Of a DNA stretch of 44,569 nucleotides, positions 510-41,966 are shown piece by piece. The position numbers and the translations under genes are program-made. Origin of the DNA: Escherichia phage SECphi4; sequence record MT331608. One strand, 5' to 3'. Numbering within the stretch: position 1 is the stretch's first letter; every line of letters starts with the position of its first letter. The notes under the pieces were generated by a model that saw nothing but the letters and a program-made list of their open reading frames with translations, did not search any database and had not been told where the DNA came from.

Positions 510-966
510 GTGAATTTTGCAACGTTTATTGCGTAAATTTTCGGAACCAGATCGCTGCACGCCCGACGAATTGCCGCGATGTTCTTCTCGCAATCTTCAA
601 TGATGACCAGTTCCGACACGTCCGCATAGCAGACCATTTTGAATACAGCGCACGCCTTAAACTCCGGCGGCGGGGTGTCGTCCAGCATGTGGCGCATAAA
701 CAACCGGCCTGTCGGGAATACTTCCAGTTGCTCGGCGGTAGTCTCCCAACATTCGCGCTGCAGGTTTGTCAGATACGCGATCTCGAAGCCTTGCTCTTTA
801 TACATGCTCAACAGCGGCAGCATATCCATGTTAAGGTCTTCGCGTACGTGCGATTTGTGCCACTTCGCCCAAAATGTTGATTTGGTTTTTATGCCGGGGA
901 CCAGTCGGCGCGCGCATCACTTGAACCATTAATAACACCATCCAGATCACAAATCAGTAGTTTCAT
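497..966 (-). pseudogene. HAD-superfamily 5'-nucleotidase-like gene split by a -1 frameshift (or sequencing indel)
   Basis: ATG at 964..966 encodes MKLLICDLDGVI (HAD motif I DxDG) and stops after 25 codons; the -1 frame is open from 916 to 497 and contains an LDD motif; frames overlap at a C4 run and GC repeat (892..916). Confidence 0.35.
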
Positions 967-1184
967 TTTAATTCCGCCATTAAATTTTCACGTACAATAC
1001 GGGACGAGAATGCGTCGCACACAAGATGGCAATGCGCCGTCATGACAAGCCAGCCAGTTAGGTCAAGGCCTAGCAATTGATGCGGTTGGCTTGCGCGCCT
1101 TACTTTATTTCCAGGGAAAACCTGGTAGCGTTTAATTATTTCATCCACGACGCGCGGACTGCGATCGACGACTAAGATATTCAT
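963..1184 (-). CDS. Hypothetical protein (73 aa)
   Basis: ATG at 1182..1184 preceded by GAAGGAG SD; overlaps the 3' end of the Dam-like gene. Confidence 0.45.
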   Translation of the reverse strand: MNILVVDRSPRVVDEIIKRYQVFPGNKVRRASQPHQLLGLDLTGWLVMTAHCHLVCDAFSSRIVRENLMAELK

Positions 1185-1650
1185 ATAATTCTCCTTCACT
1201 CATTATCTCGATTTGTGCGCTGCCGTTTGGCGGCACTTCTTCAAAGATTATCAATTGCTGACACTTGTTGTTACTCGGCCCGACCTTACCGGTGACGGCG
1301 TGTATAAACCGGATCCGCCAGTCCAGCAAAATGATCAGGTTGGCGGTTTGCCTTGCCAGTTTGGCCCACTTCGTGGTCGTATCTTGGTTGAGCAACATTA
1401 CCGTCTTACGCCCCTGCGATGCGCAAGTCACCCACGGCAGCGGGTCGGAATACGGCGGATTGCACCACTTCCACCCGTTTAACTCTGACCAGTCAGCATC
1501 AAGCGCGCTGTGCTCTTTCGTGAAATAGCGCGGTAGCAAATGGTTGTGGTCGCTCGCCGCCATGTCGTAGCGGAATTTAAACGCCTTGCGCAGCGGTTTA
1601 AATAAAGCTGGCGGCGTGCGCCAGCTATCTTTTTGCTCACTCTTCTGCAT
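1141..1650 (-). CDS. DNA N6-adenine methyltransferase (phage Dam family)
   Basis: WRTPPALF N-terminal motif and catalytic NPPY tetrapeptide in a 169-aa ORF. Confidence 0.85.
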   Translation of the reverse strand: MQKSEQKDSWRTPPALFKPLRKAFKFRYDMAASDHNHLLPRYFTKEHSALDADWSELNGWKWCNPPYSDPLPWVTCASQGRKTVMLLNQDTTTKWAKLARQTANLIILLDWRIRFIHAVTGKVGPSNNKCQQLIIFEEVPPNGSAQIEIMSEGELYEYLSRRSQSARRG

Positions 1651-2095
1651 GGTCGGTATCTATCGCATACAGGGCAATTTTCTTACCACTGTTTAGAACG
1701 CGTTGCAGGCGCTTTGCCCCCTCGACGCTAAGCGGTCGGCAATCGGAGTAGTAGCTGCCGTTTGCGCGCCACGCCATAAGCACCAGGTCTTTTCTGTCGA
1801 TCTTAGACTGGCGACCTTTGGGGCGCACGTACTCCTCGGCCCGTTTGCAATGCTCGCGCAGACCTTCGGCAGTGATGCGGTTTAGTGCAACGCTGGTTGT
1901 GTATCCGGTGCGCTGCATAATCCCCATCAATTTGAAAAGCAGTTCGAAACGCTCCTCTAGCTCCTTGCGGACCTTCTCTTCACCTTCATAGCTTGCAAGA
2001 TAGGTGTTAGCCAGCGCGGTAGCGCCTTCTGCTTTCTCGCGTGCTTCAAGACACTGCGCTACCCAGTACGCTTTTTCTTCTTGTAAAATTTTCAT
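1637..2095 (-). CDS. Hypothetical protein with C-terminal resolvase-like HTH
   Basis: 152-aa ORF with strong AAGGAG SD; C-terminal segment resembles Hin/resolvase HTH_7 pattern. Confidence 0.45.
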   Translation of the reverse strand: MKILQEEKAYWVAQCLEAREKAEGATALANTYLASYEGEEKVRKELEERFELLFKLMGIMQRTGYTTSVALNRITAEGLREHCKRAEEYVRPKGRQSKIDRKDLVLMAWRANGSYYSDCRPLSVEGAKRLQRVLNSGKKIALYAIDTDHAEE

Positions 2096-2383: not shown

Positions 2384-2412
2384 AATATAATGCAACCAAT
2401 CTAACTATGCAA
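2384..2412 (-). promoter_or_regulatory. Sigma70-like promoter (TTGCAT-N17-TATATT) with two direct ATTGGTTGCA copies
   Basis: Motif copies at 2391..2400 and 2408..2417 on the complementary strand, upstream of the gene starting at 2337. Confidence 0.45.
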
Positions 2413-2417
2413 CCAAT

Positions 2418-2741
2418 TTACGCATAAAAATTCGGGTCGCGCGCGACGTCTACCAGGTAAAGGTTGCTCATGCGGTTGCCGTAGTGCCCTGGTGTGCGCT
2501 GGCGGCACACAACGGCGAAGCCTGGGGGGATTGTATTGCCAGTCTCAATAATCCACGCCACGCGCGCCCCCGATAGAGTTTTGCCGTTGCATTCGATACG
2601 TGTGCCACCATCGGCAGTATTGATGTTGCCAATTTTGCAGCCGGTGGACTTCAGACGAATGACGCCGGTTTTGCTGTCGTAGGAAAAAAGCTGATTGGTC
2701 ATTGCCACTGAAAAGTCGATGGCGTCGAATGCAGTATTCAT
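2418..2741 (-). CDS. HNH-like protein with apparently degenerate catalytic residues
   Basis: 107-aa ORF resembling phage HNH_3 layout but with conserved His positions replaced; GAGGAAAA SD. Confidence 0.35.
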   Translation of the reverse strand: MNTAFDAIDFSVAMTNQLFSYDSKTGVIRLKSTGCKIGNINTADGGTRIECNGKTLSGARVAWIIETGNTIPPGFAVVCRQRTPGHYGNRMSNLYLVDVARDPNFYA

Positions 2742-5334: not shown

Positions 5335-5613
5335 TTAAGCGACCAATTCAGCAACCAATAAATCACAGTCAGCTATGTTGTCAATGACGCGAACGTCCGC
5401 ACCGCGGCGGGCCATCCGCTCATGTTCTCGCACCTGGTGCGGCTTCGGTTTGCCTCCGGGGCGCTTCACTTCGACGAAAACTATTCTGCCGTTGATGATG
5501 ATAATCAGATCGGGCGCACCTGCGCGCCCCTCCCAGGCCACTTTGCGGCAGAATCCGCCGACGGCTTTCACCAGTTTCATAAGGTGACTTTGGATCTTGC
5601 CTTCTGGTGTCAT
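5335..5613 (-). CDS. VRR-NUC domain nuclease
   Basis: PDLIIIINGRIVFVEVK PD-(D/E)XK core typical of VRR-NUC; translationally coupled (ATGA overlap) to the upstream gene. Confidence 0.8.
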   Translation of the reverse strand: MTPEGKIQSHLMKLVKAVGGFCRKVAWEGRAGAPDLIIIINGRIVFVEVKRPGGKPKPHQVREHERMARRGADVRVIDNIADCDLLVAELVA

Positions 5614-11798: not shown

Positions 11799-12138
11799 GG
11801 TATATCTCCGATTGGTTAAGTTTAGGTGTCGGCAGTTAACTTCGTCGGTGGCCTTAACATATTGCCAGGTTACGCGTTCTCCCGTTCGGGTAGTGGACCT
11901 GGTTATATAATCACGGTTGGGAATCCTGACACTTCGATCCGGCCCCTGCGTTGCCCCTCTCCAGTTTGCGTCCTGCATCCTGTCGACGAGGTGAATATTA
12001 GATTGGTTGCATGAGGGAGTCAACAACTAATTTAAAAAAAAGCGCCGAAGCAAAATGCGACGGCGCTAACCAATAAGAGACAATGAGACGGGAATTATTA
12101 TTACACGCGTGCGCGCCCGTTTCAATATTCCAGAGGAG

Positions 12139-12198: not shown

Positions 12199-12528
12199 AT
12201 GAATATAAACGACGCAATCGAAATGTTAACTAAGACTGTTGGCAGTGAGACTAGCCGGTCCTGGGCCTATACCGATGCCGTGGGGGCTGTATTATTTGAA
12301 ATCGAACGTCTGCGACTTACCGAAAAAGAATTACGCGCGAAGCTGGAATTACTCAACGGTACGGCAGCCAGCAAGCTGCAAAAGCACAATGAGGAAATGG
12401 AAGAATATAAAAAACAGGTTATCCGTTTGCGCGCCGAGGGCAAATCCTGGGCGATGATTGCCGAGTTGACCGGAATTAATCAGAGCACAGTGCGCTCCTG
12501 GGTACGCAATAATAAAACTTCTAAGTAA
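12199..12528 (+). CDS. HTH DNA-binding protein (putative transcriptional regulator)
   Basis: 109 aa; C-terminal SWAMIAELTGINQSTVRSWV helix-turn-helix; GGAG SD. Confidence 0.55.
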   Translation: MNINDAIEMLTKTVGSETSRSWAYTDAVGAVLFEIERLRLTEKELRAKLELLNGTAASKLQKHNEEMEEYKKQVIRLRAEGKSWAMIAELTGINQSTVRSWVRNNKTSK

Positions 12529-14803: not shown

Positions 14804-14884
14804 ATTCTGCGCGCATTGGTTGCCGTTTTGAGTGTTTTTATCCGGTCGTATTGGTTGCCGTGTAGTGTAAATATAATGAATAGT

Positions 14885-15071
14885 TATGCAATAAAACTGC
14901 ATAAAGTAAGCGGGACAAAAAGCGGGACAAACAAGAGGCGGGACAAAGCGGGACAGCACCCCCGTCCCGCCCCGGATGACGCGGCCTGGATAGGAGCGGG
15001 ACAGGCGGGACAAACCCCAGTCTTTCAGACTAGACGGGGGTCAATGGCCCCCCTCGTCTGAGACTGAATAA
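14885..15071. repeat. Iteron element copy A: six or more GCGGGACA direct repeats plus a conserved imperfect palindrome
   Basis: Near-identical to 31562..31740, including a 55-bp identical block cccagtctttcagactagacgggggtcaatggcccccctcgtctgagactgaataa. Confidence 0.85.
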
Positions 15072-15226
15072 AATCCGGGGATTGCAAAATACACGGCAGC
15101 ATAATGCGAAGTGCGGTCGCGGATGAACTAGGCAACCAATGCGATTTGCATTATGCGAAGTGAAAAATGCAGTTTGCAGTTGCAGCAGATAGCGATCAAC
15201 TTTTTCATGCGCGTGATTAATATTGG

Positions 15227-15255
15227 TTGCATTCAACCCGGCGCCTTGCTATATT
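15227..15255 (+). promoter_or_regulatory. Sigma70-like promoter (TTGCAT-N17-TATATT) with ATTGGTTGCA copies at 15222 and 15253
   Basis: Same architecture as the minus-strand promoters; 21-bp block tatattggttgcacaccaaca is shared with the promoter at 25833. Confidence 0.5.
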
Positions 15256-15282
15256 GGTTGCACACCAACATGAGGGCGGAAC

Positions 15283-15462
15283 ATGAAAACCGAAATGGTT
15301 AATAAGCGCGAAATCAAGATCGGCGATACGGTAGTCCACAACGGGGAGCTTCGCACTGTGTGCAAGCGAGCGTTTAGCATCGATGAATTTATGGGCCTGC
15401 TACTTTGGGGCGACAGCTATCGTTTAGGGCATAAACTGGTTGAGAGGGTTACGGAACTATGA
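15283..15462 (+). CDS. Small hypothetical protein (59 aa)
   Basis: ATG with GAGGG SD; stop overlaps the next ATG; not in the ORF track because it is under 60 aa. Confidence 0.45.
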   Translation: MKTEMVNKREIKIGDTVVHNGELRTVCKRAFSIDEFMGLLLWGDSYRLGHKLVERVTEL

Positions 15463-15785
15463 AAGCGATTATCTGGAATTACGCAATGGCCATGGCAGCG
15501 GCACAAGAAGCGGCGGAGTTCGCCGGTGAAGGAGCGGAAGCGGTCGAAAGACTATCGGCAGCGTGGTCCGTTGTTCGCGTCACGCAGCAGGCCATCGCCT
15601 GTATGCTTGAGCGCCGCTTCGACACGATGGCTGAGATCCAGCCGCTGGCGAACGCAATCCAGGACTACGCGCTTGCATTTGCCCGTGAGCGCCTGGCGTA
15701 TCGCTTCGGGATCGGCGAGACGGCAGTGACAAACGTCGCCCGGATTAAAGCCCAGCGCGAACTATTCGCCCAGCTTGCGAAATAA
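15459..15785 (+). CDS. Hypothetical protein
   Basis: 108-aa ORF translationally coupled to neighbours. Confidence 0.5.
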   Translation: MKAIIWNYAMAMAAAQEAAEFAGEGAEAVERLSAAWSVVRVTQQAIACMLERRFDTMAEIQPLANAIQDYALAFARERLAYRFGIGETAVTNVARIKAQRELFAQLAK

Positions 15786-15794
15786 GGGGCCAAA

Positions 15795-16064
15795 ATGAGC
15801 CGCAGACGGGCGAAACTGCTTTCGTGGCATATTCCACTGCATTGCATACGAATATGGGCTAAGAATGCGACTGAGGGCGATTCTGTATTCTGGTGCTATC
15901 GCGACGACGTTAAGCCGTTGACGCAGACTCGCTACTTGCACCAGTTCGCAGCGCAACACGATTTCAGGGTGCGGACCTCCTTGCAACCAATGGGGATTCG
16001 TATTACATTACGCCGGAAGCCCGCCGTTGAGCGGGTAGGCAAACACTGGAGACTGAGCAAATGA
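15795..16064 (+). CDS. Hypothetical protein
   Basis: 89-aa ORF with AAGGGG SD. Confidence 0.45.
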   Translation: MSRRRAKLLSWHIPLHCIRIWAKNATEGDSVFWCYRDDVKPLTQTRYLHQFAAQHDFRVRTSLQPMGIRITLRRKPAVERVGKHWRLSK

Positions 16065-16213
16065 CACCAATGCAAATAGCACTAATGGCGGGATTCTCGC
16101 AGAAGTTTATTTCAGTAGACGCCTGCATAGATGACTACGAGTATAATGGCGTCGCTACGGTGTGCGATGGCGACACGAAGACTATCGAAGAGATCGAGGA
16201 GACTGAACTATGA
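16061..16213 (+). CDS. Small hypothetical protein (50 aa)
   Basis: ORF bridging two annotated ORFs with ATGA-type overlaps at both ends. Confidence 0.35.
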   Translation: MTPMQIALMAGFSQKFISVDACIDDYEYNGVATVCDGDTKTIEEIEETEL

Positions 16214-16770
16214 AATTACTATTCCGCCGCAAATCAGACGGGCGCATACTGAAGCCGATCCAGGTGCTGCCGAAATATGTGCGCATGTGCCATGAGCCGA
16301 GCGCCCGCGTATTCTGGTACAAGAAATCCGGCCTACATGAACATTTGCAGGTTGTGCATCACGACGTGCGGGTCGGGGATGTGCTGCGTGATAGCAACGA
16401 CGGCAAACTGTTCGTAGTCCAGCGCGTTAGTACTGTCAGCGTTATACTGCAAAGCCGCAATACACAGCGCGTCGTACCGCCCGAAGGCTTAATTAACTTC
16501 ACTCGCGTAGGTCGGAACTATTTGCTTAAGCAGTTCAAGCGCCCTGGCGGCGTGGCGAAAGATATTACCCGTACGGAGCACCCATATACCAAATATGATG
16601 CCTGTCAGGTTAACGCGCGCATGAATGCCGCCATGCGCGACCTGGTTGACAAGCAGTATGCTGTTCGCCAGGCTAACGACGACGCGAAGAGCTACGGCGT
16701 CGGGTTTATCCGTGTAGAACCAGACGGCAGCATGAAGGCCATCGACCCGCGCTCGGTGATTATGAAATGA
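16210..16770 (+). CDS. Hypothetical protein
   Basis: 186-aa ORF with no recognisable motif. Confidence 0.5.
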   Translation: MKLLFRRKSDGRILKPIQVLPKYVRMCHEPSARVFWYKKSGLHEHLQVVHHDVRVGDVLRDSNDGKLFVVQRVSTVSVILQSRNTQRVVPPEGLINFTRVGRNYLLKQFKRPGGVAKDITRTEHPYTKYDACQVNARMNAAMRDLVDKQYAVRQANDDAKSYGVGFIRVEPDGSMKAIDPRSVIMK

Positions 16771-16913
16771 GCGCGGCTATCCGTGATATGCTGATGCACA
16801 ACCGCTTTGAGATAGGCGGTCGGGTATTTCGCAATTACTTCGTGGCGCGAGCATGGGCGCGCCATATTGGCAAACCGGAAGGGGCAATTCGATGCTATAC
16901 GTCTTCGCGGTAG
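16767..16913 (+). CDS. Small hypothetical protein (48 aa)
   Basis: ATGA overlap with the upstream stop. Confidence 0.3.
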   Translation: MSAAIRDMLMHNRFEIGGRVFRNYFVARAWARHIGKPEGAIRCYTSSR

Positions 16914-16993
16914 TATGTGGCGGTAGTCTGGCGGCCCTGGTGTTGTTGGCGGCTGTTATTAGTCTGGTTAAATACCTATGGAGCAGATTATGA
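16892..16993 (+). CDS. Small membrane peptide (33 aa)
   Basis: GGAAGGGG SD; single hydrophobic helix. Confidence 0.3.
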   Translation: MLYVFAVVCGGSLAALVLLAAVISLVKYLWSRL

Positions 16994-17277
16994 TTCATGA
17001 TGTGATTTATTGGTTTGGTATGGCCAGCATGTTATGCCTGGTTACGGGAGTGCTGGGCGCAATATGGGTATTCCTGGTATGGCCCGCCGTGGAAGCTGCC
17101 AGCATTACCCGGATGACGTTCCAGATATACAAGCGCCGCGGGATCACGGAGCACCCGACCAGGTTACGCATGTGGTTGCTGTGGTATCGGGATATGATTG
17201 GGGGCCGGATGTTCGAGGCCGTCCGATCGGAAGGGTGGGAGTGGAAAGGCGTCGGCAAGTGGTCCATTTTCGATTAA
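16978..17277 (+). CDS. Membrane protein
   Basis: 99-aa ORF with two predicted TM helices; alternative ATG at 16990. Confidence 0.5.
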   Translation: MEQIMIHDVIYWFGMASMLCLVTGVLGAIWVFLVWPAVEAASITRMTFQIYKRRGITEHPTRLRMWLLWYRDMIGGRMFEAVRSEGWEWKGVGKWSIFD

Positions 17278-17294: not shown

Positions 17295-17330
17295 AGTCCC
17301 AGTGAGCTAAAACTTACTGGGACTTTTTTA
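17295..17330 (+). terminator. Rho-independent terminator
   Basis: Perfect 9-bp stem AGTCCCAGT/ACTGGGACT with 12-nt loop followed by T6. Confidence 0.55.
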
Positions 17331-17620
17331 TGGATAAGCTAAACGAGTGGTTATTTGCCCTCGCATGTCTGGCAGGCGGCTTCGTAGGCGCACGCATTCA
17401 TGGCGAGGCTACGAAAGGGCCGCTAAACTTCGTTTTATATATCGTGGTCGGCTTCCTGTGTGCCATATTTGGCGCACCGGCTATTGCCGAGTGGGCTGGT
17501 TTGTCGGGGGAGCGCACTGTCGCCGGTTTGGGCTTCGTAACCGCAATCTTCTGGATGCCAATCGCCGACCGGATCAGGGAGACTATTGCGTCGTTCCGAC
17601 TTCCGGGGGGTGCAAAATGA
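17330..17620 (+). CDS. Holin-like membrane protein
   Basis: 96-aa ORF with multiple TM helices immediately upstream of the endolysin gene. Confidence 0.6.
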   Translation: MDKLNEWLFALACLAGGFVGARIHGEATKGPLNFVLYIVVGFLCAIFGAPAIAEWAGLSGERTVAGLGFVTAIFWMPIADRIRETIASFRLPGGAK

Positions 17621-17862
17621 TTATCTCCGTCCTGTTGTTTGTTATCATCGGGGCTTCGTCCCTGTTTAACGTGTATGCGCCGTCCGTCCAGGATGGCATT
17701 TTAGGCCGGGTGTTATATCTGCTAACGGCGATGATCTGCATTATCGGATTGTTGCAGACAGGAGACGTATCAGATACTACCTGGACCGCGTTAATCTGGC
17801 TGTTTGCATTGCGCACACTGCGTAATGCTGTTTTGAATGGGGTAAAACATGCGATTCAGTGA
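17617..17862 (+). CDS. Second small membrane protein of the lysis cassette (holin or antiholin-like)
   Basis: 81-aa ORF starting at an internal ATG, ATGA-coupled to the holin gene; two TM helices. Confidence 0.55.
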   Translation: MIISVLLFVIIGASSLFNVYAPSVQDGILGRVLYLLTAMICIIGLLQTGDVSDTTWTALIWLFALRTLRNAVLNGVKHAIQ

Positions 17863-18340
17863 TAACGGTCTACGATTTACGGCAGCATGGGAGGCTTTCA
17901 GCCCGGTGCCGTATTTCGCGACCAAGAAAGAGCAGGCCCGCGGCCTGTACACCTGGGGTTATGGGCATACCGGCACTAATCCGCCACGAAGCATTACCCG
18001 TGCGGAAGCGCTGGAACTGCTCAAGCGCGATGTGGCGTATGCAGAGGCCTGGGTGAACAAATACGCACATCCGAGCATTAACCAGGCGCAATTCGACGCG
18101 CTGGTTGACCTGGTAATCAATGCCGGTCCGGGTCCGATCGTACCAGATGACGTAGCGAATGATTTCGATGATGCGGTGCGACTGGGCGACTGGGCGAAGG
18201 TCCGTGCTACTCTGCCGCAGTTCCGCAAGCAGGGCGGGGAAGTGCTTAAGGGTTTGGTCCGTCGAGCAATCGGCAGGCAGGCGCTATTCGATGGTAAGCA
18301 GTGGGACGTTGCCGAGAAGATCGGACGTAACGCAGCATAA
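17849..18340 (+). CDS. Endolysin (T4-lysozyme-like, GH24 family)
   Basis: 163 aa with the catalytic Glu context and YGHTG / ITRAEA...LKRDV pattern typical of phage lysozymes. Confidence 0.8.
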   Translation: MRFSDNGLRFTAAWEAFSPVPYFATKKEQARGLYTWGYGHTGTNPPRSITRAEALELLKRDVAYAEAWVNKYAHPSINQAQFDALVDLVINAGPGPIVPDDVANDFDDAVRLGDWAKVRATLPQFRKQGGEVLKGLVRRAIGRQALFDGKQWDVAEKIGRNAA

Positions 18341-18356
18341 TACGGGGTAACACAGT

Positions 18357-18524
18357 ATGTTAAAAAGTATTCTTGATCATAACGCCGACGCGCTCGCCGC
18401 GCTGGCTAAAACCGAAGACCCTGGCGCACGCGCTATCATCGCCGACACTATCAGCCACGCTGGGGTCTTCGATGCGAAGCTGCCAAGCCCGCCACCGCCG
18501 GAAGAACCCGGCCCAGCAGCGTAA
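18357..18524 (+). CDS. Small hypothetical protein (55 aa)
   Basis: GGGG SD; proline-rich C-terminus; followed by a terminator. Confidence 0.4.
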   Translation: MLKSILDHNADALAALAKTEDPGARAIIADTISHAGVFDAKLPSPPPPEEPGPAA

Positions 18525-18532
18525 ACAATCAA

Positions 18533-18556
18533 GCCCGGATAATACCGGGCTTTTTA
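18533..18556 (+). terminator. Rho-independent terminator
   Basis: Stem GCCCGG/CCGGGC with 6-nt loop followed by TTTTTATT. Confidence 0.6.
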
Positions 18557-25802: not shown

Positions 25803-25832
25803 TTTTGTGTCCTCGTTGTTGGTGTGCAACCA

Positions 25833-41916: not shown

Positions 41917-41945
41917 AGTATCGCACTGCTTAACCATTAATGCAA
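41917..41945 (-). promoter_or_regulatory. Candidate promoter (TTGCAT-N17-GATACT) with an ATTGGTTGCA copy
   Basis: Motif at 41941..41950 on the complementary strand, upstream of the lipoprotein gene. Confidence 0.35.
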
Positions 41946-41966
41946 CCAATTTATGAGGATTTAGCA

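Follow-up and report, generated by a model that had tools for sequence, protein, structure and literature searches.

A mosaic operon of eight small genes between the replication and lysis genes of the Dhillonvirus SECphi4

What do phages of the genus Dhillonvirus encode in the small, densely packed open reading frames (ORFs) that separate their replication genes from their lysis genes? We address this question in Escherichia phage SECphi4 (sequence record MT331608), whose sequence of 44,569 nucleotides (nt), hereafter the window, carries eight such ORFs (O1 to O8) at positions 15283-17277. The original prediction suggested host-takeover, anti-defence or exclusion functions for this cluster on the basis of its position. 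As far as sequence can tell, the eight ORFs are genuine conserved genes that form one promoter-to-terminator operon. We favour, with a probability of roughly 55%, the reading of the cluster as an accessory operon of non-structural and non-replicative proteins, probably expressed early, whose variable members act on components of the host or of competitors. Both the time of expression and every molecular function proposed here for the cluster genes are inferred.

Results

Eight coupled genes between a candidate promoter and a terminator

The window is the genome of a Dhillonvirus (HK578-like siphovirus): a megablast search with the region retrieved 157 phage records, nearly all of them Escherichia or Shigella Dhillonvirus, with phage SM_S22 as the nearest relative (92% identity over 82% of the query). 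O1 to O8 correspond one-to-one to SM_S22 CDS0057-0064, every one annotated as "hypothetical protein", and the SM_S22 cluster is flanked by a replicative helicase-primase on one side and by two holins and an endolysin on the other. Genes of this cluster are already catalogued under the same label in >150 public genomes. Our comparative set consisted of 22 Dhillonvirus loci. The operon and its two ends comprise the following features, with protein lengths in amino acids (aa) and isoelectric points as pI.

15221-15261, plus strand: candidate promoter with two direct ATTGGTTGC motifs, -35 TTGCAT (15227-15232), 17-nt spacer and -10 TATATT (15250-15255)
15283-15462, plus strand: O1, 59 aa, soluble; a facultative cassette in "slot 1"
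15459-15785, plus strand: O2, 108 aa, predicted helical; genus-core, with a multi-allelic middle between conserved ends, MKAIIWNY at the N-terminus and RERLAYRFGIGETAVTNVARIKAQRELFAQLAK at the C-terminus
15795-16064, plus strand: O3, 89 aa, pI 11.3; genus-core basic alpha/beta protein
16061-16213, plus strand: O4, 50 aa, very acidic (pI 4.1); a facultative, variable cassette
16210-16770, plus strand: O5, 186 aa, a two-module mosaic: the N-domain (residues 1-102) is beta-rich and contains an SH3/Tudor-like barrel, residues 107-124 form a disordered linker, and the C-terminal module, in the AlphaFold model, consists of a long helix (131-162) and, after it, a conserved hairpin at the C-terminus, YGVGFIRVEPDGSMKAIDPRSV
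16767-16913, plus strand: O6, 48 aa, pI 11.2; a highly conserved small protein
16892-16993, plus strand: O7, 33 aa, a single-pass membrane mini-protein (hydropathy 2.59); a facultative insertion
16978-17277, plus strand: O8, 99 aa, with a variable N-terminal transmembrane helix (hydropathy 2.32) and a conserved basic C-domain, predicted N-out/C-in
17295-17330, plus strand: intrinsic terminator with a 12-bp stem, a 6-nt loop and six Ts running straight into the holin ATG at 17330

All eight ORFs lie on one strand at the coordinates first reported, and their packing is as tight as had been described. Six of the seven junctions overlap, by a 4-nt ATGA at O1/O2, O3/O4, O4/O5 and O5/O6, by 22 nt at O6/O7 and by 16 nt at O7/O8, the exception being a 9-nt gap at O2/O3. 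ATG-started ORFs of at least 33 aa tile 99.5% of the 1,995 bases on this one strand, compared to a mean of 50% and a maximum of 88% across 2,000 first-order Markov simulations, and the annotated frame is the best of six for all eight ORFs under a codon-usage model trained on long genes of the same phage. Purifying selection, measured as the ratio of nonsynonymous to synonymous substitution rates (dN/dS), is seen on O3, O6, O8, and O4 (0.17, 0.12, 0.23, and 0.28, respectively), which contradicts the possibility that these four are not translated and identifies them as real protein genes. For O7, the evidence of selection is thin, with 0.09 synonymous (pS) and 0.03 nonsynonymous (pN) differences per site. 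A search for paralogy among the eight ORFs revealed none. The number of small membrane proteins had been put at three and is corrected here to two, O7 and O8, since the remaining ORFs do not exceed a Kyte-Doolittle 19-residue maximum of 1.14.

A ~96-nt insertion in the 5' end of O8 gives rise to O7, which 7 of the 22 loci carry at full length and which is annotated in SM_S22 and GeorgBuechner. The O7 start is preceded at 8 nt by the Shine-Dalgarno sequence GAAGGGG; where O7 is lacking, this Shine-Dalgarno and ATG serve as the start of O8 instead (MLHDVIYW...). In SECphi4, O8 probably begins at ATG 16990, with a GGAG Shine-Dalgarno and a product of 95 aa, and not at 16978.

At the upstream end, a candidate for the motif-type promoter that had been proposed before the cluster is present: it carries the repeated TATTGGTTGC motif, present in 18 copies in the window vs. 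3 expected (6-fold), and is followed 3' of the -10 by a leader of ~20 nt and the Shine-Dalgarno GAGGG (15273-15277). The promoter hexamers and their spacing are kept in all 22 loci, with a spacer that varies in sequence. The same architecture is found before the anti-Tmn/Dam operon, the helicase operon and nmad5, and the nmad5 leader (TATATTGGTTGCACACCAACA.GAGG) is near-identical to that of the cluster. The iteron array expected upstream is likewise present, as six GCGGGACA copies at 14910-15012. At the downstream end, the intrinsic terminator was recovered by a terminator scan (predicted RNA fold of -24.8 kcal/mol, z = -5.6) and is kept in 22 of 22 loci, with a compensatory C:G insertion in one of them (L021); the record of phage WF5505 annotates the same hairpin as a terminator.

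Conserved backbone genes interleaved with exchangeable cassettes

On either side, the primase C-terminus and the holin share 93-98% protein identity in all loci except one divergent locus, and the cluster between them is itself mosaic. O2 and O3 are each found in 156 phage records, representing all the Dhillonvirus records and no other phages, and O6 in 151, again exclusively Dhillonvirus, 145 of them at ≥90% identity. The dN/dS of O6 (0.09-0.12) is on par with that of the holin (0.09) and the primase (0.07). In a collection of 5.8 billion proteins clustered at 90% identity, O3 and O8 form 20 and 39 clusters, respectively, vs. 426 for O5. O8 combines both patterns within a single protein, with an identity between relatives of 0.68 in the transmembrane segment and of 0.92 in the C-domain (C-domain dN/dS 0.11). 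It is present in 152 Dhillonvirus records and in ~326 others, with identities of roughly 33-37% in the latter, most of which are Salmonella phages. A word-seeded search did not recover the Jerseyvirus relatives of O8 and yielded a shallow alignment. One fused form of O3 was observed, in JLBYU60 (L020, 1950-2381), where a 54-aa C-terminal extension brings the protein to 143 aa.

Variation is concentrated in the other genes. Besides the window itself, O1 occupies slot 1 in 3 of the 22 sampled loci; elsewhere this slot holds unrelated small ORFs or, in most relatives, the promoter and ribosome-binding site lead directly into O2. Each slot-1 insert closes with the same GAGGACTGAACAATG-type junction, which is likely a recombination point. 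Beyond the genus, O1 homologues are found in 423 phage records, including Drexlerviridae (T1-like), RB43-like, Felixounavirus (FelixO1-like) and Vibrio phages, always amid small early ORFs. O4 has a tblastn match in 13 of 22 loci, where its length ranges from 30 to 84 aa. Within O2, mean pairwise identity is 0.44 across residues 16-62 vs. 0.85 across residues 63-108. O5 is 41-56% identical in most relatives, with a pS of ~0.5 vs. 0.31 in the flanks and a dN/dS of 0.3-0.5. A scan of O5 and O2 for positive selection identified no region with dN/dS >0.57. The N- and C-terminal modules of O5 are also found separately, and a metagenomic Dhillonvirus contig (L029, 1018-1362) carries a 114-aa paralogue of the O5 N-domain directly upstream of O5.

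Some isolates have lost part of the operon: Pubbukkers lacks O8 and Teewinot lacks most of O5-O8, including O6 and O8. Since these isolates are viable, O5-O8 are dispensable for plaque formation.

Generic folds and families without assigned function

The cluster had been described as lacking any recognizable motif, and this holds in dedicated searches: Pfam, NCBIfam, and PADLOC yielded no family for any of the eight ORFs, PADLOC at E ≤ 1. Seven ORFs fall into PHROGs families, all of unknown function and none informative; these include phrog_3623 (O1), phrog_15977 (O4), phrog_13628 (O6), and phrog_2531 (O8), with no PHROG match and a single sub-threshold Pfam hit for O7. Profile searches against the Protein Data Bank (PDB) returned nothing for O1, O2, O3, or O8. 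Pfam scans extended to O1 with five diverse homologues, to 13 alleles of O2 and to four homologues of O8 gave sub-threshold noise exclusively. A literature search found no function assigned to any of the cluster genes and no informative transcriptomic, proteomic, or functional data.

Structure models of O5 and O3, and fold searches with them, likewise pointed to generic folds and to no function. The AlphaFold model of O5 has a predicted local distance difference test (pLDDT) score of 77 overall and ~90 in the N-domain, in which the five strands of an SH3-like barrel are predicted. In the fold search, ribosomal L14e/L19, KOW, PsaE, and NdhS score equal to RNA-polymerase-interacting Tudor domains, so that the resemblance is to the general SH3-like fold only. 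We considered membership of the O5 N-domain in an RNA-polymerase-interacting SH3/Tudor sequence family, e.g., the RNA-polymerase-interacting domain (RID) of CarD/TRCF, and rejected it, as no profile matched; the PcrA/UvrD C-terminal domain and the CarD/Mfd RID stand apart from O5, with 9-13% sequence identity and no Pfam match. No Pfam family was found for O5 at E ≤ 0.1, the sole match in the PDB profile search (E = 0.65) was to an unrelated protein, and a search of its model against BFVD returned only its own family. A full HMMER scan of 1.84 billion representatives with an O5 profile produced 23 hits; these were fragments or came from the same phage group, and none revealed an informative fusion. 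For O3, AlphaFold (pLDDT 81) predicts a small basic alpha/beta domain whose fold neighbours are generic (BTB, RlmI N-domain, R3H, Smr, Alba, IF3-C), and this predicted fold weakly resembles small nucleic-acid-binding domains. For O2, the best score against helix-turn-helix (HTH) models was to HTH_Tnp_4 (E = 0.035-0.075, ~13 bits for the O2 of the window, cut-off 27), and hhalign gave a probability of 0.5% for O2 against the HTH protein of the same phage. With every HTH score far under threshold, we rejected O2 as an HTH regulator identified by profile match.

Precedents within the genus and in other phages

Two small Dhillonvirus proteins have been characterized experimentally in connection with host immunity. 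Anti-Tmn (Yamashita et al. 2025, PMC11846954) blocks a host immune system and corresponds to CDS0035 of SM_S22, and Ksap1 (Bechon et al. 2024, PMC11564622) is a 74-aa trigger of KpAvs2 (Avs2) encoded between methyltransferase and phosphatase genes. The window carries an anti-Tmn homologue at 1637-2095 (minus strand; 152 aa), 78% identical to the SM_S22 protein, whose gene is mis-annotated as "DNA ligase" in GenBank. Because close anti-Tmn homologues differ in the Tmn variants they block, the activity of the allele in the window cannot be assumed. The equivalent of Ksap1, identified by position only, is a 73-78 aa ORF on the minus strand (963-1199) that has Dam (1141-1650) on one side and the next downstream ORF on the other. 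Neither protein is encoded within the cluster: the anti-Tmn homologue of the window had no blastp hit better than E = 2 among the eight ORFs, the SM_S22 sequence (from a family of 152-154 aa) had none at E ≤ 10, and the Ksap1 equivalent is unlike all eight. The two loci nevertheless have much in common, as both consist of small familyless genes in a non-structural operon with a ATTGGTTGC-type promoter and show allelic variation among near-identical phages of the same genus. They differ in location (~963-2095, minus strand, for anti-Tmn/Ksap1), in the absence of any sequence similarity, and in the experimentally established function of anti-Tmn/Ksap1. These precedents (PMC11846954, PMC11564622) show that small accessory genes of this genus can interact with host immunity.

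The organization of the cluster is also reminiscent of the early or "nin-like" regions of lambdoid, T1-like, and Jersey-like phages, i.e., packed and overlapping small genes, many of them dispensable, with cassettes exchanged at conserved junctions (GAGGACTGAACAATG in the cluster). O1 is shared with the early small-ORF region of Drexlerviridae, and O8 with a NinH-containing region of Jerseyvirus. In two inspected Jerseyvirus genomes, the O8 homologue lies ~1 kb downstream of the endolysin, behind a terminator and among NinH-like genes. Besides O1 and O8, however, the gene content of the cluster is Dhillonvirus-specific, and no characterized nin or early function is present.

The standalone SH3 protein of Drexlerviridae (DUF7244; Eremina et al. 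2026, PMC13164509) is likewise a small beta-rich protein whose gene directly precedes the holin/endolysin module of a small coliphage. No ORF of the cluster, O1 and O5 included, matches DUF7244 or a Pfam SH3 family at E ≤ 1, and the Drexlerviridae homologues of O1 lie in the early small-ORF region, away from the lysis genes, unlike the DUF7244 protein. We thus rejected O1 as a T1-type standalone SH3 protein.

The adjoining lysis cassette

The terminator of the cluster abuts the lysis genes, which are arranged as follows.

17330-17620, plus strand: holin (match to holin family phrog_2359, E = 1e-31)
17617-17862, plus strand: second holin
17849-18340, plus strand: endolysin
18357-18524, plus strand: 55-aa ORF

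A hairpin terminator stands on either side of this cassette (17295-17324 and 18531-18552), and the Shine-Dalgarno of the first holin (GGGA) lies within the 3' arm of the upstream one. Promoter and motif scans of the plus strand from the cluster promoter to 18561 detected no promoter-like site or motif. With no recognizable promoter of their own, the lysis genes appear dependent on read-through of the 17295-17324 terminator. In Jerseyvirus Ent1, too, the start of the holin gene directly adjoins a terminator. The 55-aa ORF after the endolysin is found in most relatives, and SM_S22 and GeorgBuechner have an ORF of 135-137 aa in its place, which may correspond to the 137-aa "CDS40" of the EE09 proteomics study. 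No spanin was recognized beside the lysis genes.

Other copies of the upstream motifs and repeats

Several non-structural units of the phage are preceded by a predicted promoter in which ATTGGTTGC forms an extended -35 (TTGCAT/TTGCAA/TTGCTG), followed after 17-18 nt by TATATT/TATAGT. Sites with this sequence motif are as follows.

2392-2418, minus strand: ATTGGTTGC-motif site
5351-5360, minus strand: ATTGGTTGC-motif site
12001-12010, plus strand: ATTGGTTGC-motif site
14814-14858, plus strand: ATTGGTTGC-motif site
15221-15261, plus strand: ATTGGTTGC-motif site, in the cluster promoter
25826-25849, minus strand: ATTGGTTGC-motif site
41942-41951, minus strand: ATTGGTTGC-motif site

A sigma-region-4/HTH_23-like protein encoded at 12199-12528 is a candidate binder of this motif. 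The iteron array at 14910-15012 corresponds to a repeat region annotated as "region B" in Sodalis phage SO-1, where it is said to resemble "region A", and a second GCGGGACA array of five plus-strand copies lies at 31578-31680, inside the tail-gene region. An imperfect GC-rich inverted repeat (CAGTCTTTCAGACTAGACGGGGG...CCCCCCTCGTCTGAGACTG, 15018-15066), located after the iterons and ahead of the cluster promoter, is kept in relatives with a variable loop; as it has no trailing T run, it is no classical terminator.

Discussion

An accessory operon with a conserved and an exchangeable layer

In the reading that we favour, the region forms a single transcription unit in a virulent Dhillonvirus: host RNA polymerase would start at the conserved sigma-70-type promoter with its ATTGGTTGC-extended -35 (15221-15261), transcribe the eight translationally coupled genes, and stop, at least partly, at the hairpin at 17295-17330 before the holin. 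The operon would probably be co-regulated with the other motif-promoter units, namely anti-Tmn/Dam, helicase, and nmad5. It is built from a conserved backbone (the O2 ends, O3, O6, and the O8 C-domain) and from an exchangeable layer (the O1 slot, O4, the O2 interior, most of O5, and the O7 insertion) swapped by recombination at conserved gene junctions. O5 may act through its predicted SH3/Tudor-like binding module and O7 and O8 at the inner membrane, O1 may represent a generic small effector common to many virulent phages, and the invariant and basic O3 and O6 would more likely serve the phage's own gene expression.

The proposal of host-takeover, anti-defence, or exclusion functions is thus plausible and receives indirect support from the separate motif-promoter operon, the exchangeable cassettes, the partial loss in some isolates and the promiscuity of O1. 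Several observations weigh against it. Profile searches placed no ORF in any known anti-defence, defence, exclusion, or takeover family. O2, O3, and O6 belong to the genus core, with rates of evolution in O3 and O6 as low as in the holin and primase, a pattern more in keeping with conserved phage functions than with genes in an arms race. Synonymous divergence of O5 is raised equally, so that its diversity reads as old alleles shuffled by recombination under relaxed constraint, without a demonstrable signal of positive selection. The experimentally characterized anti-Tmn and Ksap1 loci lie in the other genome arm. A strict sigma-70 scan does not call the cluster promoter because its -35 agrees with the consensus at only 3 of 6 positions. 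Finally, proteomics of Dhillonvirus EE09 lists no cluster protein, yet only four phage proteins were detected in infected cells in that study.

Alternative readings of the operon

A different view of the backbone genes is that O2, O3, and O6 are regulators of the phage programme, acting on the motif-type promoters or on terminator read-through into the promoterless lysis cassette, which would make the cluster a developmental control operon. We regard this as possible but doubtful. The near-universal presence of the three genes in the genus argues for it, as do the dN/dS of O3 and O6 (0.09-0.19, like holin and primase), their strongly basic composition, the predicted fold of O3 similar to small RNA- or single-stranded-DNA-binding domains, a weak HTH-like C-terminal segment in 9 of 13 O2 alleles, and the apparent reliance of the lysis genes on read-through. 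However, the O2 signal is far under threshold (13 bits vs. 27; hhalign 0.5%), the fold matches of O3 are generic, and the phage already encodes a clear HTH/sigma-region-4-like regulator at 12199-12528. In addition, Teewinot is viable without O6, and a terminator also abuts the holin in Jerseyvirus Ent1, although the inspected Jerseyvirus loci have only a homologue of O8 and O2, O3, and O6 are restricted to Dhillonvirus. An extension of this idea, in which the cluster serves the lysis cassette as leader operon and timer and, separately, the multi-allelic O5 is an allele-specific inhibitor of, or decoy for, host defence, seems improbable to us. Under it, a cluster factor could control read-through of the terminator or unmask the holin ribosome-binding site and so set the time of lysis, and the best timer candidate could be the invariant, arginine-rich, and basic O3, whose predicted fold is weakly like small nucleic-acid-binding domains.

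Lysis timing could also be ascribed to O7 and O8 as antiholin-like factors, given that they adjoin the two holin genes in all Dhillonvirus loci, that each has a single transmembrane helix and that the O8 family co-occurs with the same type of holin/holin/endolysin cassette in Jerseyvirus. We judge this unlikely: a strong terminator separates O8 from the holin, and the linkage is not conserved, as the Jerseyvirus homologue of O8 lies past the endolysin behind another terminator. Moreover, O7 and O8 match no holin or lysis family in PHROGs or Pfam, whereas the neighbouring holin does, and isolates without O8 (Pubbukkers, Teewinot) or without O7 (15 of 22 relatives) form plaques. Similarly slim are the chances that the smallest ORFs, chiefly O7 and perhaps O1 and O4, are untranslated or incidental frames made by indels. 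O7 would be the best case: an insertion created it, PHROGs has no family for it, it shares sequence with the genes on both sides, and its substitutions are too few to test for selection; O1 has just three close orthologues in the sample, and the EE09 proteomics did not detect cluster proteins. Yet the own frame scores best for each of the eight ORFs, the Shine-Dalgarno and start codon that O7 has inherited are good and its product has a clean transmembrane helix, the O1 protein is conserved across several phage families at 36-71% identity, and O4 has a dN/dS of 0.28.

Implications for Dhillonvirus biology

Dhillonvirus are among the commonest E. coli phage isolates and are represented in the BASEL and SECphi collections and in phage engineering. 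Nothing in the cluster departs from the usual accessory regions of virulent phages, and the accessory operon described here belongs to the well-sampled dark matter of phage genomes, revealing no new mechanism. Nevertheless, of the small Dhillonvirus genes without a known family, two are already established as an inhibitor (anti-Tmn) and a trigger (Ksap1) of immunity. For a second accessory operon of the genus, the present map distinguishes core genes (O2, O3, O6, and O8) from swappable ones (O1, O4, the O5 interior, and O7), and fixes both the ends of the operon and the natural isolates in which parts of it are deleted.

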